Part shown: piece after piece, positions 6,190-45,634 of the stretch
Position numbering within the stretch: the first letter of the stretch is position 1
How the letters are laid out: the number at the start of each line of letters is the position of its first letter
Source of the DNA: an uncultured Actinomycetes bacterium
GTDB taxonomy: Bacteria > Actinomycetota > Thermoleophilia > UBA2241
Direction: 5' to 3'
Assembly (NCBI GenBank): GCA_963725665.1
Contig: CAVRZA010000001.1
Span: 32,001-96,000 of the forward strand
Length of the DNA stretch: 64,000 nt
Position numbers and translations under genes: made by a program
Notes under the pieces: model-generated
The model's input: the letters and a program-made list of their open reading frames with translations, nothing else
Told to the model about the DNA's origin: nothing
Databases searched by the model: none

Positions 6190-6203
6190 GCACCAGAAGG
6201 GGC

Positions 6204-6250
6204 CGGTAGCGCATACCGGATTCGAACGGGTGTGGCGGCTGTGAGTGGGC
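6204..6250 (-). repeat. Degenerate 3' duplicate of tRNA-Glu (att-like scar)
   Basis: ggtagcgcataccggattcgaac matches the tRNA-Glu 3' end at 45560 onward; anticodon arm eroded. Confidence 0.85.
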
Positions 6251-6469
6251 ACTGATCAGTCTGCGACGAAGTGTCAGCGAGTGCCTCAGAGAGCCTTCCT
6301 GAGCGTGGAGAACGGGGTCGAGTGCTGCCCGGAGTGACTAAGCGCCACCTGCTGCCGCTGCCGACGTTCCCCCCTACGGTTTGCGCAAGGCGCTCGTCCA
6401 GCACAAAGAGGAGACGAGAACCGAACATCGGCCGGCGAGTCCGGGTTCGCCCCGCCTCAAGGAGACGAC

Positions 6470-6985: not shown

Positions 6986-7092
6986 GCATCGTCCACGCCG
7001 ATTCATGGGCACCGATGGTTCACCCAAGATGGGGCGTTTGCATGGCTTGGGCACTTCAACTTCAAGGAGGCCATCGATCTTGAGCGCTATCT

Positions 7093-7174
7093 CGAAGTCG
7101 AGCCCGAGAGACCTTGGTGAGCGTAGAGAGGCGTATCCGCCTCTCCTACGGTGAGCGCAACCGCCCTGCAACCC
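7093..7174 (+). repeat. Partial copy of repeat family R2
   Basis: gtgagcgt, hairpin, then gcaaccgccctgcaaccc; similar to 25164 and 39684 copies. Confidence 0.65.
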
Positions 7175-7276
7175 GACTCTATCTGAGGTCCTTGAGAACG
7201 CGTCCGTGAAGGCCTCCTGCCTTGCCCGTGTAGACTTGCGGCACGCGCACGGGGAGACGGGAACCAAGGAGGAGGT

Positions 7277-15809: not shown

Positions 15810-15950
15810 ACGCAGGGGGCGGCTTCTACTCCCGGAGAGTTGTCCGCAGGCTGGCACTGGCCCCCCCCGCCGACCTCAAAGGTGAGGACATGTCGGCGCG
15901 ACGATCGCGTCGGTGGCCGCGAAAACCCTGCATATACGTCTGACGAGGGC

Positions 15951-15998
15951 TGGTAGTGCATACCGGATTCGAACCGGTGTTACCGCCGTCAGAGGGCG
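15951..15998 (-). repeat. 3' duplicate of tRNA-Glu (att scar)
   Basis: 46/48 identical to 45559-45606; left flank also resembles 45531-45558. Confidence 0.92.
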
Positions 15999-16116
15999 CC
16001 GATCAGACACCACTGAGCGGTTGCCGCCGTGGGCTCAGGACGGCTGGCGGCACATCGGCGACTGCGACTTTGACTGGTGCCTGCCGGAGCGAGGACCTGC
16101 TGCAGCGCCAGCCTGC

Positions 16117-25137: not shown

Positions 25138-25163
25138 CCGCGCTCGGAAACACTCACCGAGCA

Positions 25164-25274
25164 TGAACCGCCTTAATGGGGCGGTAACGAAATGGCCTTC
25201 GAGACGCCTCGGTGAGCGTGGAGGGAGGGGAGTAATCCCCTCTCCCATGGCCACGCGCAACCACCCTGCAACCC
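25164..25274 (+). repeat. Repeat family R2, full copy
   Basis: ccgcc-N7-ggcggtaac core, tgagcgtgga, hairpin, gcaaccaccctgcaaccc. Confidence 0.85.
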
Positions 25275-25452
25275 TTTGACTCCAGGGAGCCCCCTCCACA
25301 CGCACGTTGGGCCGGCATTTTGGAGGGAAGGGAGGGGGCTCTTGGGGGTCGGCTTGGGTTGCCAGCGTGCCGCCGGTCGCTCGCCACTGGCACGGCGGCA
25401 GCGGCGACGAACCCGGGAGAGATCCCTCGCCCCTACCCTCCGCTGGCCACAA

Positions 25453-25548
25453 GCCCCAGAACATGTCGGCACGGCGATGGCTTCCGTGGCCTACGGAAGG
25501 CATCTCCGTCGCGCTTTCAGATATCGAGGGGTATTCCGGGCCGCCTCC
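25453..25548 (+). repeat. Repeat family R1, copy 3 (subtype A)
   Basis: gatggcttccg-tggccta-cggaaggcatc...gaggggtattccgggccgcctc. Confidence 0.85.
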
Positions 25549-25699
25549 GCGCTCACCGATGGGCGACCACCCCGAGAGCGGCGGCCATCGGGGTGGTCGC
25601 ATTGGCTTCGACCCGGTCGTGTCGTCGTGTCGGTGAGCAGAGCAAGCACCGGTACGGACACTTAGCAGGACAGTGCTCCCCCGCTCTGCCCCGCGATGG

Positions 25700-26077
25700 C
25701 TACTGCGCCGGCCGCAGCCGAAACGCTGACCAGGTGTCGTCGATGCCCACGAGACCCAGCGGCCGCATCTCCATCCTCTCGGCGATCGCCCAGATGCTGT
25801 CGCGGTTCATGTCGAGGCCTGCCGCCTTCGACCCCTTGCGGTAGAAGACCCAGATCGCAGCCCCGGGAGCCAGCCGCTCGACTACTGGTGGCAGCTGCGA
25901 TTCGAGCTCCGCGCGAGTGTTCACGAACAGGAACACGAGCTGGGCATCGGCGGGCTCGACGAACGTGACGTCCTCAGGCAGCCCCAACGACTCGACGACG
26001 CCGGGGACCCGGTGCAGGACGGCGATCCTGGTCCCTGGCTTGATGCGCGCCTTCTCGGCGACGCTCCTCTCGCTCAC
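25700..26077 (-). CDS. DUF3052-like conserved protein
   Basis: IWVFYRKGSK...LNRD-like...IDDTWSAFRLR; aaggagg RBS. Confidence 0.75.
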   Translation of the reverse strand: MSERSVAEKARIKPGTRIAVLHRVPGVVESLGLPEDVTFVEPADAQLVFLFVNTRAELESQLPPVVERLAPGAAIWVFYRKGSKAAGLDMNRDSIWAIAERMEMRPLGLVGIDDTWSAFRLRPAQ

Positions 26078-26212
26078 ATTGCCTCCTTCGAGGGTGATGA
26101 GGGTGGGCGAATCACAATCGATGTACCCGATTGACGTATGCAATCCCACCCCGACAGGTTCGTCGATGGGGTTGGCGGAATCGGGTAGTTCTCACGGAGG
26201 TTGACGAGCGTC

Positions 26213-26320
26213 GGCCCCGGCCGTGGCTGATCTGGTCTGCGCGCAGAGAGGCCTTCCCTGGCCCAAGGAAGGTATCTCGGAGACGCTCTGAGATATCGAG
26301 GGGGTATTCTGGGCCGCCTC
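26213..26320 (+). repeat. Repeat family R1, copy 4 (subtype B)
   Basis: gaggccttccc-tggccca-aggaaggtatc...gagggggtattctgggccgcctc. Confidence 0.85.
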
Positions 26321-26895
26321 GAGGCCCAGGGCGCGACAGCCGAAGCCTTAGAGAGCACTGTAGCCCATGCATCTCCGCAGCGCGTTCGTACAACCTGCTT
26401 CAAACGATAAACCGGGTGCTTCGTCGGCAAGACATCCCACCACGGACGTCGACGTGACGGCCTTCGGAAATGGCTGTGCGGCGAGCGGACGTTGGCGGCA
26501 TGAGTGCAGTCCTGCCACTCCTGCTGCTCCCCGTTGTCTGAAATGGTTACAGCAGGCCGTGTTCCGAGGGAGACTAGGGAGGCACGCTACGCCCTCCCGT
26601 GCGTGGTGCGTGCAGGGCCGCCGAGGTGCGGGAACTCGGTGACCGTTCTGTGCTGGAGGGAAGCGGGCCGCGACTGTCTTCCCGCTCGTCAGCGCCAGCG
26701 TAGCCGCTGCCCTCACGGGTGGCGGGCCTTCTGCTGCCCCGTCAGACGGCGAGCGCCGCGCCTCGCTCACGTCCGCCAGTGGCGCCGCGGAGATAGAAGC
26801 GGCCAAGACCTGACGCGCCCCGGGCGGTGTCGCCGCAGAACGACACCGCCCGGTCTTGACCACCGCCTACGTGCGGCGGCCGTCTCTGCTCTTGT

Positions 26896-27531
26896 TCAGG
26901 CAGCGCTGCACAGCGGGTCTTCGGGGTGCTGTGCGCAGTAGGTCGCCGACGCGAGCGCGCCGGGCCGCCGGCGACGGCGAGCCAGTGCCCACGCGGCGAT
27001 GACGACGATGAGCGCGGCCGCGGCCGAGCCGGCAACGATCCAGGTGGTCGTGGAAGACGTGCCCGACGAGGCAGGGGCCTGCGCGGCCGCAATCGTGCCG
27101 CTCCCTGCGACGGTGTTCGACACGTTGTTGAAGTGGTGCCGGTGCAGGATCAGGGCCTGCGCGGCCGCCTCGCGTAACGCGGTCGCCACGCTCGTGGACG
27201 ACCCGCCGGGGACGTAGTTGGCGCCCCAGGCCCACCCGGTCGGCAGCTGCGCGGTCGCCACGCTCGTGGACGACCCGCCGGGGACGTAGTTGGCGCCCCA
27301 GGCCCACCCGGTCGGCAGCTGCGCGGTCGCCACACGGGGCGCGTACGGCCCGATGCCCTGATGCTGTTGGACCTGAGCCAGCGTCGGCAGCTGCAGGGTG
27401 TTGAACGTGCTCGTGCCCGACCCCGTCCCCTGTGCAGCCTGCGCGGCCTGGACGCCCAGCGAGACCACGAGCAGCGACAACAGGAGCACGCCCGAAAAAC
27501 GCACGAGCCGTTTCTGTGCTGAAGTGTGCAT
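26896..27531 (-). CDS. Secreted/membrane-anchored protein with 24-aa tandem duplication
   Basis: Signal peptide ending AQA, C-terminal TM plus RRRR, Cys-containing tail. Confidence 0.75.
   Translation of the reverse strand: MHTSAQKRLVRFSGVLLLSLLVVSLGVQAAQAAQGTGSGTSTFNTLQLPTLAQVQQHQGIGPYAPRVATAQLPTGWAWGANYVPGGSSTSVATAQLPTGWAWGANYVPGGSSTSVATALREAAAQALILHRHHFNNVSNTVAGSGTIAAAQAPASSGTSSTTTWIVAGSAAAALIVVIAAWALARRRRRPGALASATYCAQHPEDPLCSAA
27179..27333. repeat. Perfect 72-bp tandem repeat (two copies plus 11 bp)
   Basis: Units start at 27179, 27251 and 27323. Confidence 0.92.
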
Positions 27532-27933
27532 ATCCTCACCTCCCGGAAGCCGACGCTGCCGTCGCGGCAGGGCCAGCGACCCCTTTGAGACGGGAAACCC
27601 GACCAACAGGGGTTTCTGGCCCCCGATAGGCCCCAGATAAACCCTATCTCCGCAGGGTTAACATTTCGGTGACCGACCTCGCCCGTGCCAACTCATCGTC
27701 AGCCCTTGCAGCTTGACCGGGGCGTGCCCTACGGTCGCACCTGACCGGACGATCTGTGCGTGTGGGCGAAGTCTCGGCTCAGCACTGAGCAGGGCAGGCG
27801 GGCGTGAAGGCAATAGGGGCGCGACCGTCTACCCGAACGTCAGCGCCAGCGTGGCCGGCCCCGGTCGGTTAGCGCAAGCGGGCGCGCTGGCGGGTGGCCG
27901 CCAAGCAACATGACAATGGGCACTCAGCTCGGC

Positions 27934-28383
27934 CTAGGCTCTTGACCCAGTGCGCACATCCTCGAGCAGGCCGCTAATGGTCAAGCGAAGGCCCTCTTTA
28001 TGGACCTCGTCCGGGTACGCGAACGCGAAGGCGTGCCGGTACAACCGGACGTTGGGTCGCTCTTCCTTGTGGGCTTGAAAACGGAAGGCCTTCTCGGCTG
28101 CCGCGACGTATTCGTGTGGCTGGCCCGTGCGCTCCGCCTCCTGCTTCTCGTCCATGCTCAGTGGCGCAAACGCGCCGATTCTCCGGAGCATGACCATGTC
28201 CGTCGGCTCGCTCCAGCCAAACACCGTGGGGTTCGTGGCCATGGCGCGTTGAAACTCGAAGATCTCGTCGCCGAGAAACAGCACTTCCTTCTCCCTCCTG
28301 GCCAACAGCGTCGCCAGGTCGGCTCCTTCTTCGGCGCCTGGCAGGCGCCAGTCGGGTTTCTGCTGCTGCTGCTCACCGTTCAC
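27934..28383 (-). CDS. Hypothetical protein
   Basis: 149-aa ORF with gagggggag RBS before GTG. Confidence 0.6.
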   Translation of the reverse strand: MNGEQQQQKPDWRLPGAEEGADLATLLARREKEVLFLGDEIFEFQRAMATNPTVFGWSEPTDMVMLRRIGAFAPLSMDEKQEAERTGQPHEYVAAAEKAFRFQAHKEERPNVRLYRHAFAFAYPDEVHKEGLRLTISGLLEDVRTGSRA

Positions 28384-28775
28384 GACTCCCCCTCTCCGGT
28401 GTGTGCGGGATTCACGCGGAAGCTAGTAGGGGGCCGACCGAGGCGCTTATGGCGACCGCAGACGGGTCTCGCGGCCGGCCCGGGGAAAGCGTACGTCGGC
28501 GCGCTGGCGGGCGCCAGGGTGACAACAGGCCATTGATTGCCTCGAGGTAGGGGGGTGTCTATCCTCTTCCCAGCATAAGGCCCGCCGGGTGTTGGCGTGG
28601 CGTAGAGGAAAGAGGAAGCTCAGTCTCACCCGGACGTCACCCCGGGCCAAGCCTGAGCTATGCCTCGCCTGGCTCGCCACGCTCCGTACTCCGGCGGGCC
28701 ACTGAATACTATCGCCTTCCAGCACCCGTTGCCCAGTGAGACAACAACCGCTTGCGCAGGGCAGGTGTTTCGAGC

Positions 28776-28823
28776 TGGTAGCGCATACCGGATTCGAACC
28801 GGTGTTACCGCCGTGAGAGGGCG
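28776..28823 (-). repeat. Perfect 48-bp 3' duplicate of tRNA-Glu (att)
   Basis: Identical to 45559-45606, spanning CCA end through the anticodon arm. Confidence 0.95.
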
Positions 28824-29177
28824 CCTATCAGTCTGCTAATGGGTGCTACCGAGTGCTTCTGAGAGCCATCCTGAGCGTGGAAAATCGGAGTCGAGTGCCA
28901 GTTAGAGGTACTGAGAGCCAACCAGTGCCGCTGAGTCTGGTTGCAGACGGGTTGCGGACGGGACCGTGCAAGCTCTGCCTTGAGACCGGCCCCTCCACTT
29001 GTAGTAGTTGAAAGCAAGCGCTGTGCGGTGAGGTGGCAGACAAGTCGGTCGAGCTTCCCTCCTCCGGCCGCCGATGCCAAGGTGACACGGCAGGCGGTAG
29101 GTCAAAAGGCGTATCCTATGGGGGTTTCGAGAGTGTTTAGGGGGAGTCCTGGGGTTTTGAGCGGTGCAAGAGAGACA

Positions 29178-29819
29178 GTGACGGGTGAGGGTCCTATCCG
29201 CGTCATGATCGTGGACGACCACGCCGTCGTCAGAAGCGGCCTCTCCGCCTTCCTGTTCGCATTCGATGACCTCGAATGCGTGGGAGAGGCCACGGGGGGT
29301 GCGGACGCGGTCCGCAAGTGCGTCTTGCTCAAACCCGACGTCATCCTCATGGACCTCGTCATGCCTGACGTGGACGGCGCCGAAGCCACCCGCCGCATCA
29401 AGGAGACATGCCCCGACGTCCAGGTGATCGCCCTCACCAGCTACAAGGAGGACGATCTGGTCCAGGGGGCGCTCAAGGCCGGTGCCATCAGCTATCTGCT
29501 GAAGAACGTCTCCGCCGACGAGCTCGCCAACGCGATCCGGGCGGCGCACGCGGGTCGCTCCACGCTGGCGCCTGAGGCAGCCCAAGTATTGATCAAGGCG
29601 GCGACCGAGCCGCCGGCTGCCGAGGAGGGGCTCACGAGCAGGGAGCTCGACATTCTCAGGCTGATGGTGGCCGGCGAGAGCAACCCCGACATCGCGGCCA
29701 AGCTCTTCGTGAGCCGGTCCACGGTCAAGTTCCATGTGAGCAACATCCTGATGAAGCTGGGAGCTACCAGCCGCACCGAGGCGGTCGCCATGGCCCTGCA
29801 GAAGAAGCTGGTGGAATGA
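29178..29819 (+). CDS. NarL/LuxR family response regulator
   Basis: VDDHAVVR, MDLVMP, LTSRELDIL and TVKFHVSNI motifs. Confidence 0.93.
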   Translation: MTGEGPIRVMIVDDHAVVRSGLSAFLFAFDDLECVGEATGGADAVRKCVLLKPDVILMDLVMPDVDGAEATRRIKETCPDVQVIALTSYKEDDLVQGALKAGAISYLLKNVSADELANAIRAAHAGRSTLAPEAAQVLIKAATEPPAAEEGLTSRELDILRLMVAGESNPDIAAKLFVSRSTVKFHVSNILMKLGATSRTEAVAMALQKKLVE

Positions 29820-31201
29820 GGCACCTCACGCTCCGCGGCCGGATCGAACCGCGGCTCGGTGCCCGCGGGTCGGTTCTCGCCCTGATCCTCCGTCTTGCCT
29901 GTGGTGGTCTGGCCATCGCCCTGGTGGCAGGGTGCAGTGGTGGCGTAGTCCCGAAGACCTCCCCGAGCACAGGGAGAGTCCAGCTCGTGTACCAGGATTG
30001 GCGCACGGAGTGGTTCCCTCCCATGGCGCAAGAGGAGCTGGCCAAATTCCAGTCCCAGCACCCCAACCTGAGCGTCTTCTATACACCTGACCCGGAGAAC
30101 CTCGCCGACCAGATGCCAATCGACATGCAAGCCGGAAACGCTGCCGACGTGTTTCAAGGATGCTGCGGCTTCTTCCCGGCCTGGGCGCAAAAAGGTTATG
30201 TGCTCGATCTCAGCGGGTTCGTGAAGGCCGACTATGACAAGTTGCTGGTGGCCGACTGGGACCCGGCCCAGTACAAGGCTTTCTTTGACGCCGACGGACA
30301 CCAGTTCGGGGTGCCCAAGTACCAGGGCACGCTCGTCCTCTACTACAACAAGGACATCTTCGACAGGTACAAGGTCGCCTACCCGGACGCGTCCTGGACT
30401 CACGACGACTACCTTGCGGCCATGAAGAAGCTGACGCGGGACACGAACGGAGACGGCAGCACCGACATCTGGGGCAGCATGATCGACATCGGCTGGGACC
30501 GGCTGCAGGTGCACATCAACGACTGGGGCGGTCACATCGTGGACCCCAAGGACCCAACGAAGTGCGACATCGACAGCCCTGAAGCGCTCGCGGCGCTCGA
30601 GTGGGTGCGCGCGCGGATGTGGGACGACAAGGTGATGGCCACGGCCACCGATGTGAACAACGTGGGGACCCGGGTGGCCTTCTCTGAGGGCAAGCTCGCC
30701 ATGGTGGAGGACGGCTCCTGGGCTCTCAAGGACATTCTCGAACACTCGCACTTCCGCATCGGGGTGGCGCCGATACCTGCCGGCCCGGTTAGGCGGGTCA
30801 CCCTGAGCACGACCGACGGGTTCGGCATCTACTCCAGGACCCTGCACCCCCGGGAGGCATGGGAGCTGGTGAAGTTCCTCGTGAGCAGGGAGTACGGGCT
30901 GGCGATGGCCAGGGCGAACCTGCTGCAGCCGGCGCGGCTATCTCTCGTGGCGGACTGGGAGCGATTCGTGAAGCAGCAGTACCCGCGGCAGGCCAGGGGC
31001 ATGGATCTCGACGTGTTCGCGGCCCCGCACCGCGAGAGCTACTCGGTCGTTCAGGAGGTGTTCCCGCGGAACATGGATGAGGCTGCTCGCCTGCTCGACG
31101 ACGCTTTCGCCAAGATCTTCACCCTCGGCCAGGCGAAGGTCGACATTCTGCACGCCGTGAGCCGGCAGATCGAAGCGGCTCAGACGCGCAGCGGCCCCTG
31201 A
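29816..31201 (+). CDS. Sugar-type solute-binding lipoprotein (family 1)
   Basis: Lipobox LVAGC, LYYNKDIF motif; ATGA overlap with regulator. Confidence 0.88.
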   Translation: MRHLTLRGRIEPRLGARGSVLALILRLACGGLAIALVAGCSGGVVPKTSPSTGRVQLVYQDWRTEWFPPMAQEELAKFQSQHPNLSVFYTPDPENLADQMPIDMQAGNAADVFQGCCGFFPAWAQKGYVLDLSGFVKADYDKLLVADWDPAQYKAFFDADGHQFGVPKYQGTLVLYYNKDIFDRYKVAYPDASWTHDDYLAAMKKLTRDTNGDGSTDIWGSMIDIGWDRLQVHINDWGGHIVDPKDPTKCDIDSPEALAALEWVRARMWDDKVMATATDVNNVGTRVAFSEGKLAMVEDGSWALKDILEHSHFRIGVAPIPAGPVRRVTLSTTDGFGIYSRTLHPREAWELVKFLVSREYGLAMARANLLQPARLSLVADWERFVKQQYPRQARGMDLDVFAAPHRESYSVVQEVFPRNMDEAARLLDDAFAKIFTLGQAKVDILHAVSRQIEAAQTRSGP

Positions 31202-31221
31202 GGCCGGGTCGGGTCGCGGCG

Positions 31222-33513
31222 ATGCGGGGGGTCTTCACGCATGTTCGCCTGCGGACGCGTATCCTGGCATGGTCGTTCGTCCCCACGGCCGTCATCCTCT
31301 TCGCGGTGGCGGTCGTCGCCGTCTACGCCTACGCGCGGGTGACGGAGCAGGAAGCGGTCCAGAAAGACCAGGAGCTCGCCCGCCTCTCAGCCGCCAACCT
31401 GGCTGCCGAGATCAACCAGTTCTCATTGGATCTCGGCGGCCTCACGCGGCAGTCCGATATCGCCGGAGGCCAGGCCCAACGCCAGCAAGCGGCCCTTGCC
31501 GCCTCCTCGAACAAGCTGTCGGTCTTCGACGCAGGGACTGTGATACTCGACGCCCACGGGGCCTTCGCCGCCGCATGGCCGGAGCGTCCCGCCGATGTGG
31601 GCGAGGACTGGTCGTCGCGTCCCTACTTCATCCAGCTCATTCGCTCCTCACGACCCGTCTTCTCCGACATAACGAGCGATGGTGTCGGCGGTGCCACGGT
31701 GATCACAGTCGCCGTCCCTATCACCGGACCGCGGGGCGAGTTCAACGGCGTCCTCGCCGGCATGTTCCGGCTGGGGGCAACCTCGGTCAGCGCCCTCTAC
31801 GGCGACATCGCAAAGCTGCGCGTGGGAGTAAGCGGCGACGTGTACGTCGTCGACGGCAGCGGCCGTGTCATCGCGCACCCCGATGCGAAGCTCGTGGGGA
31901 TGGACTTGACGTCCCAGAACGTGGTCCGCCGGGTCGTGTCCGGCCAGACCGGGGCCGTACGCACCCGCGATCTCAACCACAGGGACGTCGTCGCCGGCTA
32001 CGCTCCCGTGCCCGGGACTCGTTGGGGCTTGATCGCCGTCGAGAACTGGTCGACGCTGATTAGGCCGTTTCAAAGATATCGCACCTTCCTGCTGGTCCTC
32101 CTCGTCCTCGGCCTGCTGATCCCTTCGCTGGTGGTGCTGCTGGGCGTTCGCCGCCTGACGCGGCCCGTATCCGCCCTCTCGGAGGCGGCCCGGCGGGTGG
32201 CCAAAGGCGACTTCGAGCACTCGGTCACCATCAAGACCCACGATGAGCTCCAGGAACTAGCCGAGCAGTTCAACGACATGTCCGCGCAGCTTCGCGACTC
32301 CTACGCTGAGCTCGACAAGCGGGTGGCCTCCCGCACACAGGAGCTCGCCACCCTCAACGCCGTGGCGGCCGTGGTGAGCCAGTCGTTGAACCTGGAACGG
32401 ATACTCGCCGATGCCCTGGCGAAGATCATCACGGAGCTGGGCTTCGAGGCAGGAGTGGCCTTCATCATTCCCGAGAGCGACAGCCCAGAAGGGGGGGTGA
32501 GGCTGGTGACCTCGAGGAACATCTCCGCGGAGGTGATGCCCGTTCTCAGAAGCGAAGCCTCCACGGGCCTTGGGCAGCGCTTGCGAGCTCTCGGGGGGCA
32601 GGCCCAGGCACTGCCGCTCGGCAGACTGTTCTCTAGCGACCTCGCGACTTCTCTCGGCTCCGCCGGCTGGGAGTCTGCCGTGCTGATCCCGGTCACCGCC
32701 AAGGCAACGGCGTTCGGTGGCCTGGTGCTCTTTGCCGCTCAGACGCCTGAGTTGACTCCCGAGCAACTCACCTCGCTCTCGGGCCTGGGGAACCAGATAG
32801 GGATGGCGGTGGACAACGCACGCCTCTATGAGCAGGCAGAGGAGTCCGCGGCGGCGATAGAAAGGAACCGGTTGGCCCGCGACCTTCACGACGCGGTGAG
32901 CCAGACCTTGTTTTCAGCTTCGGTCATCGCCGAGGTGCTTCCCAGGATCTACGAGCGTGACCCGGAGCAGGGCAAGCAGAGGTTGGAGGAACTGCAGCAG
33001 CTGACCCGAGGGGCGCTGGCGGAGATGCGCACGCTGCTTCTCGAGCTGCGACCTGCCGCCCTTGCCGAGGCGAACCTCCCCGATCTGCTTCGGCAACTGG
33101 GCGAAGCGGTGGCGGGACGCTCGCGAATCCCCGTCGACGTGCAGGTAGACGCTGCTGTGGGCCTCCCGGCCGAGGTCGGCGTGGCGCTGTACAGGATCGC
33201 GCAAGAGGCGCTCAACAACGTGGCCAAGCACTCGGGGGCCGAGCACGGGCAGGTGAGGTTGCACGAGTGCGGCGACGACGAGCGCCCGGCGCTCGAGCTC
33301 GTCGTCGCCGACGACGGTTGCGGCTTCGACCCCGATGTCGTCCGGCCCGGCAGCCTCGGTCTCGGCATCATGACCGAACGGGCGGAGGCGATAGGCGCCC
33401 GACTCCAGGTGGAGTCGGTCCCCGGGGAAGGCACGCGCATCCGGGTCGTCTGGCGTCACGATCCCTTGCCCCGCTCCCCCCGCGTCGAGAGCTCTCTTCA
33501 GACAGCCGACTGA
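31222..33513 (+). CDS. Sensor histidine kinase (Cache-HAMP-GAF-HisKA_3-HATPase)
   Basis: ERNRLARDLHDAVSQ, QEALNNVAKH, DDGCGF, GLGIM; two TMs. Confidence 0.93.
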   Translation: MRGVFTHVRLRTRILAWSFVPTAVILFAVAVVAVYAYARVTEQEAVQKDQELARLSAANLAAEINQFSLDLGGLTRQSDIAGGQAQRQQAALAASSNKLSVFDAGTVILDAHGAFAAAWPERPADVGEDWSSRPYFIQLIRSSRPVFSDITSDGVGGATVITVAVPITGPRGEFNGVLAGMFRLGATSVSALYGDIAKLRVGVSGDVYVVDGSGRVIAHPDAKLVGMDLTSQNVVRRVVSGQTGAVRTRDLNHRDVVAGYAPVPGTRWGLIAVENWSTLIRPFQRYRTFLLVLLVLGLLIPSLVVLLGVRRLTRPVSALSEAARRVAKGDFEHSVTIKTHDELQELAEQFNDMSAQLRDSYAELDKRVASRTQELATLNAVAAVVSQSLNLERILADALAKIITELGFEAGVAFIIPESDSPEGGVRLVTSRNISAEVMPVLRSEASTGLGQRLRALGGQAQALPLGRLFSSDLATSLGSAGWESAVLIPVTAKATAFGGLVLFAAQTPELTPEQLTSLSGLGNQIGMAVDNARLYEQAEESAAAIERNRLARDLHDAVSQTLFSASVIAEVLPRIYERDPEQGKQRLEELQQLTRGALAEMRTLLLELRPAALAEANLPDLLRQLGEAVAGRSRIPVDVQVDAAVGLPAEVGVALYRIAQEALNNVAKHSGAEHGQVRLHECGDDERPALELVVADDGCGFDPDVVRPGSLGLGIMTERAEAIGARLQVESVPGEGTRIRVVWRHDPLPRSPRVESSLQTAD

Positions 33514-33515
33514 CA

Positions 33516-33533
33516 ACTGGCCAGCTGGCCAGG
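33516..33533 (+). promoter_or_regulatory. Candidate 7-4-7 operator
   Basis: actggcc-agct-ggccagg, resembling boxes at 34174 and 37039. Confidence 0.5.
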
Positions 33534-33647
33534 ACGAGAACCCGCCAAGTGCCGATGGCCCAGGTCGCGTGGTTGCTCCAGACTCGCAAAGGAGAGACCC
33601 AGCGGCCCCTCCCGCAGCAGGTAGGGAACGACGACCGGAGGCGACGA

Positions 33648-34031
33648 ATGCGCATCGTGCTGGCAGACGACGAGCAGAAGGTCCGCTCGGCCCTGCGCCT
33701 GCTGCTCGAGGAGCTGACAAAGGAGTGGGTCGGCTCCCTGTGCGAGCACCGCTGCCATGTCGTGGAGGCACCCTGCGCCGAGGTGGTCGTTCGAGAACTC
33801 AAGAAAGAAGCGGCCGATCTCCTGTTGCTCGATTGGGAGCTTCCCGGCATGGCCGCCGGCGAGCTGGTCGACGAGGTCCGCGAGCTCTCGCCGGGCTGTG
33901 TCATCGTGGCGATGAGCGGTCGCCCTGAGGCCGCGCGTGCTGCAGCCGATCGGGGTGCCGACGCCTTCGTCAGCAAGAACGAGCCTCCCGACAGGTTGGT
34001 GAGCACCCTGCTGCACCAAGTCGCGGTCTGA
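33648..34031 (+). CDS. Single-domain response regulator
   Basis: VLADD, LLDWELPG, FVSK; no output domain. Confidence 0.85.
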   Translation: MRIVLADDEQKVRSALRLLLEELTKEWVGSLCEHRCHVVEAPCAEVVVRELKKEAADLLLLDWELPGMAAGELVDEVRELSPGCVIVAMSGRPEAARAAADRGADAFVSKNEPPDRLVSTLLHQVAV

Positions 34032-34173
34032 CTCCGCAGCAGAAGGTCGTTGAGCTGGGGCACGTCCGTCAGGACGTGCCCGTTCAGTCTTGCCGGGCGC
34101 CGATGAAGGATAGCGGCCTGGACGGTCTCACAGGGGCACGAGAGCCTGCCGACGCGGCGCGACCACAGCGTCA

Positions 34174-34270
34174 CCTAGTCGAGTGACCAGGCCAAAGACT
34201 GTCCCCCTCGCCAGTGCCGATTCCCCCCGCCCGGCGGGCGTGGTGCGCCCGCCCTCGCCGTTACTCTGAC
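34174..34270 (+). promoter_or_regulatory. Promoter with 7-4-7 operator, duplicated at 37039
   Basis: cctagtc-gagt-gaccagg, gactgtcccc, putative -10 tactct. Confidence 0.65.
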
Positions 34271-34318
34271 ATGCAAGCAGACCGGGCACGAGTGAACAGA
34301 GCCAAGAGGGGGTGTGTC

Positions 34319-34570
34319 ATGAAGCAGGCCGAGGTCTCCAGGGTTCATCGGAGACGCCAGGGCCGCGAGGAGTACAGGGCTCAGGTGACGCGTCCGCAGA
34401 ACGACATCAACGAGCGGCTCGATGCGGTGGTCCGGCGCTTTCTTGAGCGCTCCTCGCAGCGGGGGTTCGATCAGCCGGCGGACGAGGACTACGCGATGCG
34501 CTGGGCCATCGCCCGCCACCTCAGGATCCAAGCAAGGTCGGTGAAGGGGGAGCATCATGTCGCAGCGTAG
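34319..34570 (+). CDS. Small hypothetical protein (83 aa) overlapping the MMPL start
   Basis: gaggggg RBS; C-terminus similar to 37179..37364. Confidence 0.55.
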   Translation: MKQAEVSRVHRRRQGREEYRAQVTRPQNDINERLDAVVRRFLERSSQRGFDQPADEDYAMRWAIARHLRIQARSVKGEHHVAA

Positions 34571-36950
34571 GAGCGCGCGCAGGCACTCGGACGAGAAGAA
34601 GAGGCGGGTCGCCGGCTTCACCGAGCGCCTCGCCAGAGGGAGCGCCACCCATCCCTGGCGCACAATCGGCATCTGGGGGGCGCTCATCGCGGTCGCCTTT
34701 CTCGCCGTCGGCTCGCTCCTTGGCAGCGGGCTGACCTCAGAGATGAAGTTCCGCGGCAGCGAGCCCGGCAGCGTGACCGCCGACCGTCTCATCCAGGAGC
34801 GTCTCAGCGGACCGCACAAGGTCACCGACTTTGTCATCGTCAAGTCGGCCACCCGCACCGTCGACGACCCCGTCTTCAAGGGCTACGTCATAGGTCTCGC
34901 GACGAAGATCGAGGCCCTCGGGCCGGGGGTGGTCGCCGACGCCTCCAGCTTCTACCTCACCAAGGATCCCACGCTGGTCTCCAAGGACAAGCGCTCGACG
35001 CTCATCCCTGTGACCATGGCCGGCGGCATCGACGATGCCCTGAAGAACGTCGACAAGGTGCATGAGACGGCGGTCGCCGCGCAGGCCGACGGGTTTACCA
35101 CCGCGCAGGCGGGCGAGGCCAGTCTCAACGAGATGTTCACCAAGCTGGCGGAGTCCGACCTGCAGCGCGGGGAGATCTTCGGCATCCCCGCCGCACTGAT
35201 CGTGCTGGTCGTCGTGTTCGGCGCCGTGCTGGCGGCATGCATGCCCATCGTGTTGAGCCTGATCAGTATCGCCCTGGCTCTCGCGCTCACGGCTGTCATT
35301 GGCCAGGTCTACCCGATGAACACCTTTGTCCTGAACATCCTCACCATGATGGGTCTGGCGGTGGGCATCGACTACTCGCTCTTCGTCATCAGCCGCTACC
35401 GTGAGGAGCGCGCCCGCGGCCTGGAGAAGATCGACGCCATCGCCGCCACCGGCGCCACCGCCAACCGCGCCATCTTCTTCAGTGGCATGACCGTGGTTCT
35501 GGCCATGATCGGCATGGTCATCGTGCCGCTCGACATCATGATCAGCATGGGTGTCGGCGTGATGCTCGTGGTCTTCACGACCCTGCTCACCGCGCTCATC
35601 GCGCTGCCCGCCGTCATGAGCGTGCTGGGCGACCGCATCAACGCTCTGCGCGTGCCCTTCCTCGGGCGCGCGGCCGCCAAGCGTGCCAACGGGGACGGCG
35701 GCGTCTGGGAGCGTCTCGCCCACAGCATCATGCGCCGCCCCGTGGCGTGGCTGAGCGTGGCCGTCACGGCCCTGCTGGTGCTCGCCTCCCCGGTCCTCAT
35801 GATGAACACAGGGAGCAACACCCAAAGCGCCGCTCACCTGCCCGACTCCCACTACGCCAAGCAGGGCTGGGACATCCTCGGTCGTGACTTCTCGCTCGGC
35901 AAGGCCAACCCGCTGATGATCGTCGTCGACGGCCCCGCCGCTTCGGCGCAGGTCAAGCAGAGCATCGCCCGTCTCGAGGCCGCCATGAAGAGCGACGGGC
36001 GCTTCGCTCCCGTCCAGGTGACCGTCAACAAGGCTGGCGACCTGACATTGCTGACCACCGCCTTGGCCGGTGATCCCGTGGCCGACTCCACACAGGCGCT
36101 CGTGAAGCACCTGCGCAGCGACATGATCCCCGCGGCGTTCGCCGGCAGTCCCGCCCAGGTGTACGTCACCGGCACCACGGCGGGCGTGGTCGACTACCTG
36201 GGGTTCTTCGACACCTGGCTGCCGATCGTGCTTCTCGTCGTCCTCTCGCTGAGCTTCATACTGCTTCTGGTGGCCTTCCGGTCGATCGTGGTGCCGGCAC
36301 AGGCCATCGCCATGAACCTGCTCAGCGTGGGCGCCTCCTACGGCCTGCTGGTGCTCGTGTTCCAGAAGGGCGTCGGCGCCAAGCTCCTCGGCCTGACGCA
36401 GGTCGAGACCATCGAGGCCTGGGTGCCCCTGTTCCTCTTCGCCCTGCTCTTCGGCCTCTCGATGGACTACCAGGTCTTCCTGCTTAGCCGCATCAAGGAG
36501 CGCTTCGACCGCACGGGTGACACGCGCGAGGCAGTCGGGTACGGCGTCGGGCGGACCGCCGGCATCATCACCGGCGCGGCCGCCATCATGGTCTGCGTCT
36601 TCGGCGGCATGGCGACCGGTCAGCTGGTGATGTTCCAGCAGATGGGCTTTGGCCTGGCCGTCGCGGTCTTCATCGACGCCACCATCGTGCGCACGATCAT
36701 CGTCCCCAGCGCCATGGCCATTCTGGGCGAGCGCAACTGGTACCTGCCGCGCTGGCTAGCGTGGCTCCCGAACGTGAGCGTCGAAGGTCACGCCTACGAG
36801 CCCGATGGCGAGGTCCCGCAGACGGAGGCTCCCGAGCGCGCGCCGTCGGCCGAGCCGCAGCGGCGTCCGGGAACGGGTCCGGTCCCGGCTCTCCGCCCGG
36901 CTCCCGACGTCGCCATGCGACGGGCTCCGCGTCCCGACCTAGAGCACTAG
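34557..36950 (+). CDS. MMPL family transporter (paralogue 2)
   Basis: Same motifs as, and clearly similar to, 16802..19156. Confidence 0.93.
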   Translation: MSQRRSARRHSDEKKRRVAGFTERLARGSATHPWRTIGIWGALIAVAFLAVGSLLGSGLTSEMKFRGSEPGSVTADRLIQERLSGPHKVTDFVIVKSATRTVDDPVFKGYVIGLATKIEALGPGVVADASSFYLTKDPTLVSKDKRSTLIPVTMAGGIDDALKNVDKVHETAVAAQADGFTTAQAGEASLNEMFTKLAESDLQRGEIFGIPAALIVLVVVFGAVLAACMPIVLSLISIALALALTAVIGQVYPMNTFVLNILTMMGLAVGIDYSLFVISRYREERARGLEKIDAIAATGATANRAIFFSGMTVVLAMIGMVIVPLDIMISMGVGVMLVVFTTLLTALIALPAVMSVLGDRINALRVPFLGRAAAKRANGDGGVWERLAHSIMRRPVAWLSVAVTALLVLASPVLMMNTGSNTQSAAHLPDSHYAKQGWDILGRDFSLGKANPLMIVVDGPAASAQVKQSIARLEAAMKSDGRFAPVQVTVNKAGDLTLLTTALAGDPVADSTQALVKHLRSDMIPAAFAGSPAQVYVTGTTAGVVDYLGFFDTWLPIVLLVVLSLSFILLLVAFRSIVVPAQAIAMNLLSVGASYGLLVLVFQKGVGAKLLGLTQVETIEAWVPLFLFALLFGLSMDYQVFLLSRIKERFDRTGDTREAVGYGVGRTAGIITGAAAIMVCVFGGMATGQLVMFQQMGFGLAVAVFIDATIVRTIIVPSAMAILGERNWYLPRWLAWLPNVSVEGHAYEPDGEVPQTEAPERAPSAEPQRRPGTGPVPALRPAPDVAMRRAPRPDLEH

Positions 36951-37038
36951 TTCCCCCGCCCCCGGCCGGGGCGGCCATCTGGCCGCCCCGGCCTCCCCGC
37001 GCCGGTAGTGGATCCAGATAAGCCCTCTGCTGGCCCCG

Positions 37039-37135
37039 CCCAGTCGACTGACTAGGTGAAGGACTGTCCCCCCTGCCAGCTCAAAGTCTCCCCACTAGGC
37101 GGGCGCGCTGAGACAGGTCAAGCCTCTACCCTGAC
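37039..37135 (+). promoter_or_regulatory. Promoter with 7-4-7 operator
   Basis: cccagtc-gact-gactagg, gactgtcccc, putative -10 taccct. Confidence 0.65.
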
Positions 37136-37178
37136 AGTGCAGACGAAGCAAACGAAGGCACGAGAGAGGGAGTCCGTC

Positions 37179-37364
37179 ATGTCGCCGCTCGACACACACC
37201 GCAGGGCGATCTGGTCCTCGTCCATCGATGGGCCAGCTCAGCGCAAGCACACGACTCGCCCTCGACGCCCAGACTTCAACGAACTGGCCGCTGAGGAGTA
37301 TCGGCGCGCGCTGCGTTCCCTGCTCCAGGCCAAGGGCGAGCACCAGTACAGGCTGGCGGCGTGA
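37179..37364 (+). CDS. Small hypothetical protein (61 aa) ending YRLAA
   Basis: gagggag RBS; similar to 34319..34570. Confidence 0.55.
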   Translation: MSPLDTHRRAIWSSSIDGPAQRKHTTRPRRPDFNELAAEEYRRALRSLLQAKGEHQYRLAA

Positions 37365-37398
37365 TGGCGTGGAAGAGCCCCGCAAGGTTGGGGCAGTG

Positions 37399-38043
37399 AT
37401 GGAAGCGGTCTTGGAAGCAAGCCTGCATGCCGATGCCCCTGCTGCGCAATCAGCAAGGAAGCACGGCCCGCTCAGTCTTTGCCTGGCCGTCAGCATTCTC
37501 GCCACGGTGGCGCTGGTGGCGCTCTTGGCCACCGGCGCGCTCAACGCCTTCAGCGGAGTCGATCAGCTGGCGCGTGCATCGATCCCTGGCGTTGTCAGCG
37601 TGAACGCCCCGCGAGCGGCCGAGATGGTCGTCTACCACGAGGGTGGCGTCCCCGCGAGCCTCAACGAGCTCGGGCTCCGCGTGCGCGGGCCCGACGGAGT
37701 CACCGTGGCAACCAAACCCTACGGCCTCGATCTCCGCTATCAGCACGACCACCAGGTTGGGACGGCCGTGGCGAGCTTCACAGCTCCAGCCGCCGGACGC
37801 TATCTCATCTCAACGACAGCGGCCGAGCTCGGAGCGCGACTTGCCGTGGGGGGCGACCTCGGCGCGGCGATAATGCTCACCGATTTGGCCACTGTCGGCG
37901 TCGGTCTCGCGGCACTCACCGCTATCGCCGTCGTCGTGGCCCTCGCGCTGCGGCGCTCGAACGGGAGCTCGAGACGGCGACATGCCGACGATCTTGGAGG
38001 GAGATTCCGGAGGGCGACACCGCCGTTCTCCTTCGCGGACTAG
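37399..38043 (+). CDS. Hypothetical two-TM membrane protein
   Basis: Two hydrophobic segments flanking a beta-rich domain. Confidence 0.65.
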   Translation: MEAVLEASLHADAPAAQSARKHGPLSLCLAVSILATVALVALLATGALNAFSGVDQLARASIPGVVSVNAPRAAEMVVYHEGGVPASLNELGLRVRGPDGVTVATKPYGLDLRYQHDHQVGTAVASFTAPAAGRYLISTTAAELGARLAVGGDLGAAIMLTDLATVGVGLAALTAIAVVVALALRRSNGSSRRRHADDLGGRFRRATPPFSFAD

Positions 38044-38209
38044 ACGGGGTGGATGGAGCGAACAATGACTGGTCTCGCCAAGGCAACGGCATCCGCGACT
38101 GTAAATACGCGGTGCCGAGGCAGGGAATGGACTCATATAGGAAGACTGCCGTGGCAGTGGGAGTGCTGAGCGCCGCGGTGCCGTGAGGGCCGACAAGTGG
38201 GAGGGCAAC

Positions 38210-38963
38210 ATGGACGCAGTCATCACCAGAGAGAGGCCTCGCGCGAGGACGCGAGGCGAACGAGCGCCGGCGGCCGACGCCGCCCTGCGGCGTCGCAAGG
38301 CCGCAATCACGGTGGGCGCGCTGTTCATCATCGGGGACATCGCCGGCGTCCTGAGCTACGTCGTGACCGGAGGTCTGCTGGACGGGCCGGACGCCCTCAC
38401 CAAGATCGCCGCGAACCAGAGCCACCTGGCGCTGGGGGCGCTCCTGGTGCTGACCATGGGCCTGGCGCTGGCCATGATCCCGGTCGTGATGTATCCGATC
38501 TTCAAGAAGTACAACGAGGTCCTGGCGCTCGGGACCGTCGTCTTCCGGGGCGCGCTCGAGACCGTCGCCTACACGGCCAGCGCAGGCTATCTGGCTGGTG
38601 CTCCTCGAACTCAGCCGGGAGCACCGGGCGGTGGCGTCTGCCGGCGCTCCGCACGTCCAGACACTCAGCGGGCTCCTCGTGGCGACGCAAGGGTCGGTCG
38701 CCACCTGGCTCACTTCCATCGTCTTCAGCCTCGGCGCCCTGATGTTCTACTACCTCTTCTACCAGTCGCGGCTCATCCCCCGCTGGCTGTCGGTCTGGGG
38801 TCTCGCCGGTGCCGCCCTGTACCTGGCCACGCCGTTGCTGGACATGTTCGGCCACGGGTTCGGCGTCCTGATGGCCCCCCTGGCGGTGGCGGAGATCGTC
38901 CTGGCCGTCTGGCTGATCGTCAAAGGGCTGGCCTCACCGGGCCCTGAGGAGGCGGCTGCCTGA
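38210..38963 (+). CDS. DUF4386 family membrane protein, frameshift near 38580
   Basis: N-half in the 38183 frame, C-half (SRLIPRWLSVWG...WLIVKG) in the 38598 frame. Confidence 0.82.
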
Positions 38964-39050
38964 CCGATTGTTCGAGCTGATGCAGATAGCCGACGGGCCA
39001 AGGGCACGATTGGAAGTACGTTGGCCCGCCATCTAGACGAAGGGGAAGGA

Positions 39051-39500
39051 ATGAACACAAGCAAGAAGACCACTGGAATGGAAGATATGAAAGCAAGACT
39101 CTCAACACTCTGGGTTGTGGTCATGTTCAACATGGTCTTCGCGGACATTCTCACCTTCATCAAGCCTGGAGCGCTGCAGGAATTGTGGGCCGGACAAGCG
39201 GGCGTGCAAATCACCCAGGGGCTTCTGCTGGTGTTCGCGCTACTCCTGGAGATCCCGATTGCGATGATCTTCGTGTCTCGCATCCTGAAGCCCGGGCCCA
39301 ACCGCTGGGCGAACACCGTTGCAGCGGCAATCACCACGGCGTTCGTGGTAGGCGGCGGGTCGCTGACTCCTCACTACGTGTTCTTCGCGACCGTAGAAAT
39401 CGCGTGCATGGCGCTGATCGTCCGGTCCGTGTGGACGTGCCGCCGCTCAGAGACCGTCGCCGAGCGTCGGGACGAGGTGCCTGCGCCGGTCGCCTGGTAG
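39051..39500 (+). CDS. DUF6326-like membrane protein
   Basis: LSTLWVVVMFNMVFADI...EIPIAMIFVSRIL...NRWAN. Confidence 0.78.
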   Translation: MNTSKKTTGMEDMKARLSTLWVVVMFNMVFADILTFIKPGALQELWAGQAGVQITQGLLLVFALLLEIPIAMIFVSRILKPGPNRWANTVAAAITTAFVVGGGSLTPHYVFFATVEIACMALIVRSVWTCRRSETVAERRDEVPAPVAW

Positions 39501-39527
39501 TCGGGACAGTCCCGATCCTGAAGGACT

Positions 39528-39562
39528 CGAGGGGGCGGTCGACTGCTCGACGGCCCCCTCGT
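39528..39562 (+). terminator. Hairpin after the DUF6326-like gene
   Basis: cgagggggcggtcga-ctgc-tcgacggccccctcg. Confidence 0.55.
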
Positions 39563-39683
39563 CGTCTTGGCGGACGCACGATGGTCGGGAAGCCCGCGAG
39601 TTGCTGAGAGGTTGCCGAATCTGCGGGAAGCCGCAGGCTCACCCCTCGAAGCGGCGACCCGGCGAGCGCCCCCGAACAGACCT

Positions 39684-39795
39684 GTTGCCGCCTCTCAAGG
39701 GCGGTAACGAAGTAGTTCTCCAGATGGCTCCGTGAGCGTGGAGGGAGGGAGTGGGCTCACTCTCCCTACCCGTCGCTGCAACCACCGTGCAACCC
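39684..39795 (+). repeat. Repeat family R2, full copy
   Basis: gttgccgcc-tctcaag-ggcggtaac core, tgagcgtgga, hairpin, gcaaccaccgtgcaaccc. Confidence 0.85.
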
Positions 39796-40018
39796 CCTGG
39801 TGCCTGTACCGGCTCCTTCGAAGGGCTGCTCGAGTCTGCGGGTATGCGGGCACGGGCGGGTACGTGGGGAAGCCCGATCGACGAATCGTCACGTCGATTC
39901 GAGTCCGCGTGCCGAAAGCGCTTAGCGTCGGACCGGCTCTCAGAGACACCCGCACCTCCCCGCATACCCGCAGCTCCTGACCGCCTGAAGTGTCTTCACG
40001 GGCAGGCCTCGATGCGGG

Positions 40019-40117
40019 GAGGTCTTCCGCGGCCCACGAAAGGTTCTCCTTCGCACTCTCGGATACCGAGGCGTATTCGGGGCCGTCTGCGGGCTCAGAG
40101 GATGCGGGAAGGCAACC
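40019..40117 (+). repeat. Repeat family R1, copy 5
   Basis: gaggtcttccg-cggccca-cgaaaggttct...gtattcggggccg...ctcagag. Confidence 0.78.
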
Positions 40118-45257: not shown

Positions 45258-45558
45258 TCAACCAAGCTAACATCGATTCTGCAGTCTCCATATGGCGATG
45301 ACGCCACCGTCCGCCGTCTTTGGCACGACCGCTGCAACTCTACTGGAGTCAGGAGCCTGGCACGGGCGAAACTCTCGCTCTCCCGAGCGACTTGTCCAAG
45401 TGCGCACTCCAACACCCGTGAGTGCACGCGAGTGCCACCTTGTACTATCACGTCACGCTGAGTTCGGTTGCAGGAGGGTTGCAGACGGGTTGTGGAGGGG
45501 TCCTCGGCGAGGGTCTCGACGACGACGCAAAATCCCTGCATCTACGCCTGAAGAGGGC

Positions 45559-45634
45559 TGGTAGCGCATACCGGATTCGAACCGGTGTTACCGCCGTGAG
45601 AGGGCGGCGTCCTAGGCCCCTAGACGAATGCGCC
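45559..45634 (-). tRNA. tRNA-Glu(CTC)
   Basis: Cloverleaf, anticodon arm CCGCC-CTCTCAC-GGCGG, GGTTCGAATCC, CCA. Confidence 0.96.

Follow-up and report, generated by a model that had tools for sequence, protein, structure and literature searches.

Attachment (att) sites, arm-type repeats, cores in anticodon loops, secondary sites and the tandem accretion of islands are all already known. In the Cluster K mycobacteriophages, attP is described as carrying pairs of 11-bp arm sites with a stem-loop terminator between the core and one of the pairs (PMC3203893). Some actinobacteriophage attP share only ~10 bp with the anticodon-loop region of a tRNA, and secondary bacterial sites (attB) can be used, as outlined in PMC10865867. 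Integrase-less islands that accrete at tRNA or tmRNA genes and are marked by displaced gene fragments are likewise outlined for cis-mobilisable elements (PMC5704250), for the ssrA islands of Dehalococcoides (PMC3146451) and in Islander (PMC4383910). Here we analyzed a repeat family, R2, found in a 64,000-nt stretch of DNA (the window; C1:32001-96000) of G000, the 3.73-Mb assembly of an uncultured soil actinobacterium with 68% G+C in 12 contigs (C1, C2, C3, C6 and others).

R2 is a real repeat, beyond chance. Its motifs, together with their order and spacing, are shared with the attachment sites of tRNA-Glu(CTC) in this genome and in its relatives, and all R2 modules except the hairpin are common to these sites. 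R2 is most likely an old mark of island junctions, not a new RNA gene. With moderate confidence we favor the reading that R2 is a DNA half-site for attachment by a heterobivalent (lambda/L5-type) tyrosine integrase, of a family whose islands accumulated at tRNA-Glu(CTC), and that it was probably left at island junctions. A tie between R2 and the att system of a tRNA-Glu integrase had been proposed in an earlier annotation made from the window's letters (hereafter the first-pass annotation), and it held: the core, the TGAGCGTGGA block and the arm repeats are common to attL and attR here and to att sites in relatives.

Copies and architecture of R2

R2 copies were collected by searching the whole genome with nhmmer, using a profile of the copies. 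Seven were found, six with E <= 1.4e-17, and the three inside the window lie where the first-pass annotation had placed them. The copies and the modules of the first full copy are as follows (window coordinates unless a contig is named).

25164..25280, + strand: R2 copy a, full (nhmmer E 1.1e-26; covariance model 114.5 bits)
25168..25188, + strand: core-type inverted repeat of copy a, CCGCC-7 nt-GGCGG plus TAAC, one of three genome matches to the 21-nt pattern, with an invariant stem
25213..25222, + strand: TGAGCGTGGA block of copy a, located by the genome-wide pattern count
25217..25249, + strand: central hairpin of copy a, with a purine-rich 5' arm and a pyrimidine-rich 3' arm
25257..25274, + strand: arm-type direct repeats of copy a, two of 11 bp, GCAACC-N4-TGCAACCC, matching the tail pattern
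39684..39801, + strand: R2 copy b, full (core 39688-39708, block 39733-39742, arm pair 39778-39795)
7073..7178, + strand: R2 copy c, partial, with a decayed core (variant block 7118-7127, hairpin 7122-7150, arm pair 7157-7174)
C1:479770-479885, C6:243137-243252(-) and C2:402346-402458: R2 copies beyond the window (nhmmer)
C6:9807-9882(-): weaker R2 copy (nhmmer E 2.4e-5)

A full copy begins with CCGCC-7 nt-GGCGG and TAAC, continues after ~25 nt with TGAGCGTGGAG and a hairpin of 9-14 bp, and ends in the tail GCAACC-N4-TGCAACCC, which is often followed by GACTC; the arm pair stands ~70 nt from the core. The pair GCAACC-N4-(T/C)GCAACC is present in 7/7 copies, and CCGCC-7 nt-GGC(G/A)G in 4/7, always with a spacing of 7, being decayed or absent in the other three. 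The copies, which lie on three contigs, are 72-80% identical to one another (BLAST) and have unrelated flanks on both sides, with homology running from the first inverted repeat (i.e., the core) to 0-41 nt past the arm pair. Conservation within this interval is uneven: the tail and the core are near-invariant, the remainder is conserved at ~60%, and the unpaired tail is the most conserved part. The 7-bp spacers differ among all copies and from the tRNA-Glu loop. The core had been described in the first-pass annotation as a symmetrised mimic of the tRNA-Glu anticodon arm; it does copy that arm, but 9-bp arms occur in copy 39684 only and the first inverted repeat in four of the seven copies only. 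Copy a begins ~30 nt past the stop of a RibD_C-family gene (24526-25137), copy b ~190 nt past that of a DUF6326 gene (39021-39500), and copy c lies ~90 nt past an OsmC gene (6470-6985).

Genome-wide pattern counts were compared with those in a shuffled genome (10 shuffles for the arm pair). The 21-nt pattern CCGCC-N7-GGCGGTAAC had three matches in 3.7 Mb, two of them in R2 copies and one in the tRNA-Glu(CTC) anticodon arm, compared to 0-1 per shuffle, which agrees with the earlier claim of a core half-site shared with the tRNA target around different spacers. The match between the R2 core and tRNA-Glu is in tRNA-sense orientation and includes the TAAC after the anticodon stem. The strict arm pair GCAACC-N4-TGCAACC was found nine times, five times in R2 and four times in att arms beside tRNA-Glu scars, and never in the 10 shuffles. 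In the window, the 18-nt tail pattern had four matches at <=2 mismatches vs. 0.11 expected, and the fourth of these (45465-45482, - strand) lies 77 nt 3' of the real tRNA-Glu. The TGAGCGTGGA block had 15 genome matches vs. ~8 expected; six of the 15 are in R2 or beside scars, including those at 6300 and 28872 of the window, where the block had also been reported in addition to its place after the core. Bare CCGCC-N7-GGCGG was not enriched (152 genome matches vs. ~178 expected), and the signal therefore lies in the combination of motifs and in the flanking TAAC.

Attachment sites at tRNA-Glu(CTC) in the window and in relatives

The tRNA-Glu(CTC) gene and the att features associated with it in the window are as follows.

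45559..45634, - strand: intact tRNA-Glu(CTC) (ARAGORN); the R2 core copies its anticodon arm with the TAAC that follows (45587-45607)
45466..45493, - strand: three tandem GCAACC-type 11-bp repeats, 66-93 nt 3' of tRNA-Glu, the island-side arm of attL
28743..28960, - strand: attR-type scar (tRNA-Glu 3' half 28743-28826; TGAGCGTGGA block 28872-28881 on the + strand; arm pair 28939-28955)
15918..16001, - strand: third fragment of a tRNA-Glu 3' half, with 90% identity to the real gene (3' part plus flank)
6171..6330, - strand: older scar (degenerate tRNA-Glu 3' half 6171-6254; TGAGCGTGGA block 6300-6309)

The three 3'-half copies are all co-oriented and begin in the anticodon arm, the signature of successive islands at one tRNA with crossover in the anticodon loop. 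A GCAACC pair in direct orientation lies ~115 nt 5' of the 28.8-kb fragment (tRNA-sense strand), and between the two stands TGAGCGTGGA, as its reverse complement on the tRNA-sense strand. The block is also found between arm pair and core at the 6300 scar and at C2:393665. The GCAACC repeats around tRNA-Glu are positioned where the arm-type integrase sites of attL and attR are expected. Further instances of this att arm (the P arm) are located at window 6300, C2:393.7 kb, C1:123.3 kb, C1:144.4 kb and C1:156.2 kb, those at C1:144358 and C1:156152 being further P arms found with a P-arm profile run against G000. The genes between the scars are accessory, including those for a two-component system, MMPL, DUF4386, RibD_C and alcohol dehydrogenase (ADH). 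The open reading frames (ORFs) beside the tRNA-Glu arm (44445-45458) had no Pfam match at E <= 0.5.

A covariance model trained on six R2 copies alone was searched in 89 family genomes. The 11 best-scoring loci outside G000 (E 2e-4 to 1.2e-3) all overlap an intact tRNA-Glu(CTC) gene: the matches start at the anticodon arm, take in the T arm and CCA and reach as far as a GCAACC pair or triple downstream, with spacing about as in R2; at nine of these loci the downstream element is a pair close in sequence to the R2 tail. Thus, R2 reproduces both ends and the rough spacing of a tRNA-Glu attL. Relative to such an attL, the tRNA 3' half is replaced in R2 by ~70 nt of other sequence with a hairpin. 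The R2 sequence after GGCGGTAAC is non-tRNA, and neither ARAGORN nor Rfam finds a tRNA in R2. As a separate matter, a displaced tRNA-fragment scar was considered for R2 and rejected, because R2 is without the tRNA 3' part from the crossover point to the CCA end.

Among 16 weaker matches of the model that were inspected, two are tRNA-less sites made of core, filler and arm pair, like R2 (L100 of genome G085 and L110 of genome G072); the G072 site is identical to copy 39684 at 16/17 core and 17/18 arm-pair positions. The other 14 comprise three intact tRNA-Glu, five tRNA-Glu fragments, two tRNA-Ala-like sequences (by eye), one other tRNA-like 3' end and three arm pairs alone. Homologues of the att arm were found in 6/88 family genomes, three of the sites retaining the tRNA-Glu 3' half after the core and three being followed there by non-tRNA DNA; the genes after the arm pair vary among the six relatives, as expected of island cargo. 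BLAST of R2 in 40 relatives gave a single 22-nt chance match. An exact-pattern scan (hairpin start plus tail) had one match in genome contigs, without R2 features, and five in metagenome contigs, none R2-like, and viral contigs gave 14 matches to the tail alone, sharing just the 18-mer, and none to the att-arm 17-mer. The best of 24 public sequencing runs screened contains 0.08 of the sampled words of window 38000-46000.

The R2 copy at C2:402 kb is located exactly where synteny with most of 13 relatives breaks, and no att-like site was found at the other breakpoint of this rearrangement. We also observed that the P-type ATPase gene beside this copy is followed in most of the 13 relatives inspected by a convergent endonuclease-III-like (nth-like) gene, which in G000 is instead 50 kb off on the same strand (C2:351787-352449 vs. 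C2:402340), an arrangement compatible with an inversion or rearrangement of 50 kb that terminates precisely at R2 on one side. For the 222-aa gene beside the C6:9.8 kb copy, the neighbors are not conserved in relatives. In G085:C8, at ~1,074,000-1,223,000 (L051, L101, L102, L116), an intact tRNA-Glu is followed over ~150 kb by many co-oriented tRNA-Glu fragments with GCAACC arm pairs or triples, an array much longer than that of the window.

The only integrase near an R2 copy is found at C1:479.8 kb, where ~400 bp with a helix-turn-helix (HTH) ORF separate the copy from the beginning of an integrase gene that is frameshifted. The domains of the integrase family are Phage_integrase and SAM_3, with weak Arm-DNA-bind_4 matches (E 0.0016 and 0.0046) under the curated cut-off. 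Other tRNA-adjacent integrases of G000 show, by eye, 11-bp-spaced direct repeats between the integrase stop and the tRNA. Beyond the window, at C1 ~473-550 kb, we noticed ~25 co-oriented copies of no more than the final 20-80 codons of a single family of integrase genes (e.g., C1:473083, 476897, 498198, 510155, 526768, 531833), downstream of tRNA-Arg(CCT) at C1:468624-468699. In each of them nucleotide homology stops within the last few integrase codons and unrelated DNA follows; this looks like a large accretion or cassette array with its recombination point at the integrase 3' end.

A separate repeat family, R1, follows both full R2 copies between convergent genes, at +198 and +211 nt, in agreement with the ~200 bp noted before.

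25454..25570, + strand: R1 copy after R2 copy a
40000..40110, + strand: R1 copy after R2 copy b

R1 has eight copies: the above two, three others in the window (14170-14290, 14579-14690 and 26226-26340), and C6:244364-244472, C1:123419-123519 and C1:479908-479970. Its unit consists of a 14-bp inverted repeat with a conserved 7-nt spacer (YGGCCCA-like) and a conserved 3' extension. Two direct R1 copies flank the gene 25700-26149(-), two more flank a 290-nt segment at 14.2-14.6 kb, and the C6:244364-244472 copy abuts a tRNA-Ala(TGC)-like 3' fragment. R1 could be another recombination core or arm. Just past R2 copy b lie TACCCGCA-like iterons in inverted clusters (39836-39883 and 39926-39973), which could serve as an origin, for transfer or as another set of arm sites; similar CCCGCA-type iterons adjoin an arm triple in G085 (L051:16800-16950).

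Further observations concern the array and its surroundings. In the oldest island segment, between the 6.2- and 16.0-kb scars, tRNA-Gln(CTG) comes after the gene of a class I glutaminyl-tRNA synthetase (9754-11697 for the two), and a second tRNA-Gln(CTG) (45651-45724) adjoins tRNA-Glu. A 73-nt repeat, 82% identical (21908-21980 and 22771-22843), ends at the ATG of two successive genes, for DUF4386 and a zinc-type dehydrogenase, and looks like a shared leader or operator. The ORF 26896-27606(-) contains a perfect 72-bp tandem duplication (27178-27321; 2 x 72 nt, 100%), and five in-frame tandem 33-nt repeats (53062-53270), 64-83% identical to a reference 77-nt unit, lie inside another gene. On another contig, the tRNA-Glu(CTC) that ARAGORN calls at G000:C3:15504-15605 is unusually long (102 nt) and may be disrupted, intron-bearing or a false call.

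Explanations for R2

If R2 is an attachment half-site, its core half-sites CCGCC and GGCGG(TAAC) would bind the catalytic and core-binding domains of the integrase, strand exchange would take place in the 7 bp that separate them, and the whole arrangement would be a copy of the tRNA-Glu anticodon arm. The GCAACC-N4-TGCAACCC pair would serve as arm-type sites for the N-terminal arm-binding domain, and the hairpin between core and arms may act as a + strand RNA terminator or insulator. In the core stem (helix 1), 4/5 pairs are invariant and none covary, while the spacer varies; an invariant stem with a variable loop, together with a conserved unpaired tail, is the pattern of protein-binding DNA. 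Each R2 would be a junction, with a resident gene whose stop abuts the core on one side and island-borne DNA on the arm side. A left boundary drawn sharply where the core begins, resident genes to the left of it that are unrelated between copies, and a conserved right side fit such a junction. Such junctions could have arisen by integration at an anticodon-arm-like pseudo-site or from an attP variant no longer carrying the tRNA 3' half, as is known from phages that have 10-bp cores and use secondary attB (PMC10865867). From these sequence comparisons we infer protein binding, an origin at junctions and a present state in which most copies are inactive relics.

Several results weigh against this reading. 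Neither a six-frame search with PF00589 nor the ORFs >=100 aa between 5 and 46.5 kb revealed an integrase in the window, and the family integrases inspected are mostly frameshifted or fragmentary, the exception being a fairly intact 377-aa ORF (L068) whose N-terminal matches are out of frame; an integrase near att arms in G085 (L051:14864-16400) may itself be broken. Within 60 kb of each R2 copy, no site was found that had att features and an identical spacer (allowing <=3 mismatches over 17 nt) and could act as its partner. No complete attL/attR pair can be drawn. All spacers differ, and present-day recombination among R2 copies is unlikely unless the enzyme tolerates mismatches. With differing spacers, no such partner, no integrase in the window and a frameshifted nearest integrase, the suggestion of the first-pass annotation that R2 sites serve for the swapping or inversion of cargo found no support. 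R2 gave no alignment to the att P-arm profile, the likeness being at the level of motifs, and block and arm pair are oriented differently to each other in R2 and in the P arm, as they are in the R2-type sites of G000 and G085. Empty-site comparisons in relatives were uninformative, the neighbors of two R2-adjacent genes not being syntenic. To these must be added the position of six of the seven copies 8-190 nt past the stop of a co-oriented ORF, which also suits an RNA or terminator role, and the behavior of the central hairpin (helix 2). In helix 2, 4/17 pairs are changed on both sides and 76.8% are paired, compared to 52-63% when the partner is slid. Its G-U cells number 16 on the + strand vs. 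4 on the - strand, in six related sequences whose structure was derived from the + strand fold, which biases the strand comparison.

The position behind genes and the hairpin data are what an RNA element in the 3' untranslated region would explain: two hairpins would end or stabilise the upstream transcript, the C-rich tail would be a platform for protein or RNA, and the likeness to tRNA would be incidental or an exaptation. The helix 2 covariation score was reached by 0/500 shuffles, the + strand folds with the lower z-score in 5/6 R2 copies, and, taken together, the hairpin data are no more than suggestive, though they fit a hairpin that works in RNA transcribed in the same direction as the gene upstream. 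The first-pass annotation's hairpin of altered sequence and kept pairing was confirmed by fold and covariation analysis. Its alternative of a structured RNA gained some support for the central hairpin, but the tail is unpaired, and the core, although paired, is invariant and never covaries. A structured-RNA role is possible for the central hairpins only. Moreover, the best-conserved 18 nt, which lie in that unpaired tail, are identical in motif to the att arms, and what the covariance model finds in relatives is att sites of tRNA-Glu and not 3' untranslated regions. At the gathering threshold, Rfam finds three tRNAs only in the window, and at E <= 5 nothing relevant at six R2 loci. Consensus scans for terminators and promoters, which covered window 24400-26500 and 39000-40900 only, gave 0 canonical terminators (G+C-rich hairpin plus T-run), T-run-less terminators being outside the reach of the scan, and 0 promoter-like hexamers. 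Terminators without a T-run are said to be common in actinobacteria. On balance, we consider the RNA element unlikely, if the foremost of the rivals.

We are also doubtful that R2 is a small non-autonomous mobile unit, i.e., a mini att site of ~110-150 bp that is copied or moved in trans by a resident integrase, like a miniature inverted-repeat transposable element (MITE) or a cis-mobilisable element. Its dispersal as seven copies over three contigs with unrelated flanks would fit, as would copy identities of 72-80%, resembling an old copying burst, and the R2 at C2:402 kb is only ~285 nt from a tRNA-Arg gene, so that any island there would be tiny. However, neither terminal inverted repeats nor target duplications were seen by eye at the boundaries of the pairwise alignments (no dedicated search was run), a second core that would allow excision is missing within 60 kb, and no copies are close enough in sequence to indicate recent movement. 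It is improbable that a transcription factor binding tandem 11-bp sites has its operator in the GCAACC direct repeats and that R2 is the promoter or regulatory module of a downstream gene. An 11-bp periodicity is typical of tandem-binding regulators, and at three copies a co-oriented ORF begins 87-214 nt past the tail (a 61-aa membrane ORF at 7277 with a strong ribosome-binding site, a DUF4389 ORF at C1:479967 and a 222-aa ORF at C6:9593). Yet the next gene or tRNA is convergent at three of the seven copies (both full window copies and C2:402 kb), the first co-oriented ORF at C6:243 kb begins no sooner than +356, and the promoter scans were negative. The same repeats stand on both tRNA-Glu att arms without a common downstream gene, the genes differing among the six relatives, and a tblastx search for a small ORF common to the regions downstream of R2 gave weak matches only (E 1e-3 to 1e-2), none judged shared. 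Least probable is a sequence functionless past and present, left over from segmental duplication of one intergenic region: the low identity between copies and the paralogous genes near them (RibD_C, DUF4386, MMPL) would agree with it, whereas the unrelated flanks argue against it, and the uneven conservation, with its near-invariant tail and core, and the matches beyond this genome, including the R2-like sites in two other genera-level relatives, do so strongly.

A bolder possibility, to which we give little credence, is that R2, perhaps with R1 and the integrase 3'-end array, forms a working integron-like capture system in Thermoleophilia, in which anticodon-arm mimics behind genes would act as tolerant secondary sites for heterobivalent tyrosine integrases to stitch, invert or exchange modules of one to a few genes within tRNA-Glu arrays. 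The R2-type sites near tRNA-Glu arrays are inverted relative to the tRNA in 5/5 cases (three in G000, one in G085 and one in G072), which under this capture reading may be the look of a dedicated inversion site or "other-end" site. The inverted orientation is not regarded as significant, because R2 follows the orientation of genes and most island genes point that way.

As an island-junction mark, R2 preserves the history of islands accumulating at tRNA-Glu within one family of uncultured actinobacteria. It is also a caution for RNA discovery: R2 resembles a structured-RNA candidate, with its long convergent intergenic region, covarying hairpin and conserved tail, while the footprint of site-specific recombination explains it better, and similar candidates in GC-rich genomes need the same check. 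The 11-bp arm motif and the anticodon-arm core, conserved across genera, constitute a directly testable recognition code. The tRNA-less half-sites in three genomes raise the question of whether these integrases take gene-terminal hairpins as secondary targets, which, if true, would widen the target range of tRNA-specific integrases.

Comparison with known systems

R2 resembles the attP and attL of Cluster K phages such as CrimD and of L5 (PMC3203893) in having a core on a tRNA-type stem-loop, ~11-bp arm pairs and, between the core and one arm pair, a counterpart of the stem-loop terminator; the integrase described there has an N-terminal arm-binding domain, to which the weak Arm-DNA-bind_4 matches of the family here may correspond. 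Unlike these att sites, R2 is a one-armed half-site that is without the tRNA 3' half, stands behind protein-coding genes, has no adjacent intact integrase and forms a dispersed family of seven copies. The L5 arm consensus may also resemble the GCAACC motif; a literature search for the arm motif gave one unrelated paper.

The "tRNA-dependent lysogeny" of Fionnbharth and Cluster L, in the outline given by PMC10865867, is similar in that the anticodon-loop region alone is common to attP and the tRNA, which is not rebuilt, secondary non-tRNA sites with imperfect cores are usable, and arm-type pairs lie around the core. Those are live phages with proven integration, whereas the R2 copies appear to be chromosomal relics without phage genes and with almost no likeness between their spacers and the tRNA loop. 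With tandem accretion the window shares an intact tRNA-Glu, three co-oriented 3'-half fragments (at 28.8, 16.0 and 6.2 kb) and the lack of an integrase; in contrast to accretion scars, R2 is without the defining tRNA fragment and is inverted relative to the tRNA in all five cases near arrays.

R2 is like the attC sites of integrons in being situated just after a gene, in structure that is conserved more than sequence and in its probable use by a tyrosine recombinase. It differs from them in lying outside co-oriented cassette arrays and in having arm-type repeats, which attC is without; no attC-type motif was noted in R2 by eye, and an integron integrase was not searched for. Like repetitive extragenic palindromic (REP) sequences and MITEs, R2 is short, dispersed, hairpin-bearing, intergenic and often behind genes, but it differs from both in its low copy number, in showing no terminal inverted repeats or target duplications by eye, and in the identity of its motifs with integrase att sites. 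What is unusual among these systems is a dispersed seven-copy family of tRNA-less half-sites that keep the anticodon-arm core plus TAAC, their position behind protein-coding genes, and their counterparts in two other genomes of the family.

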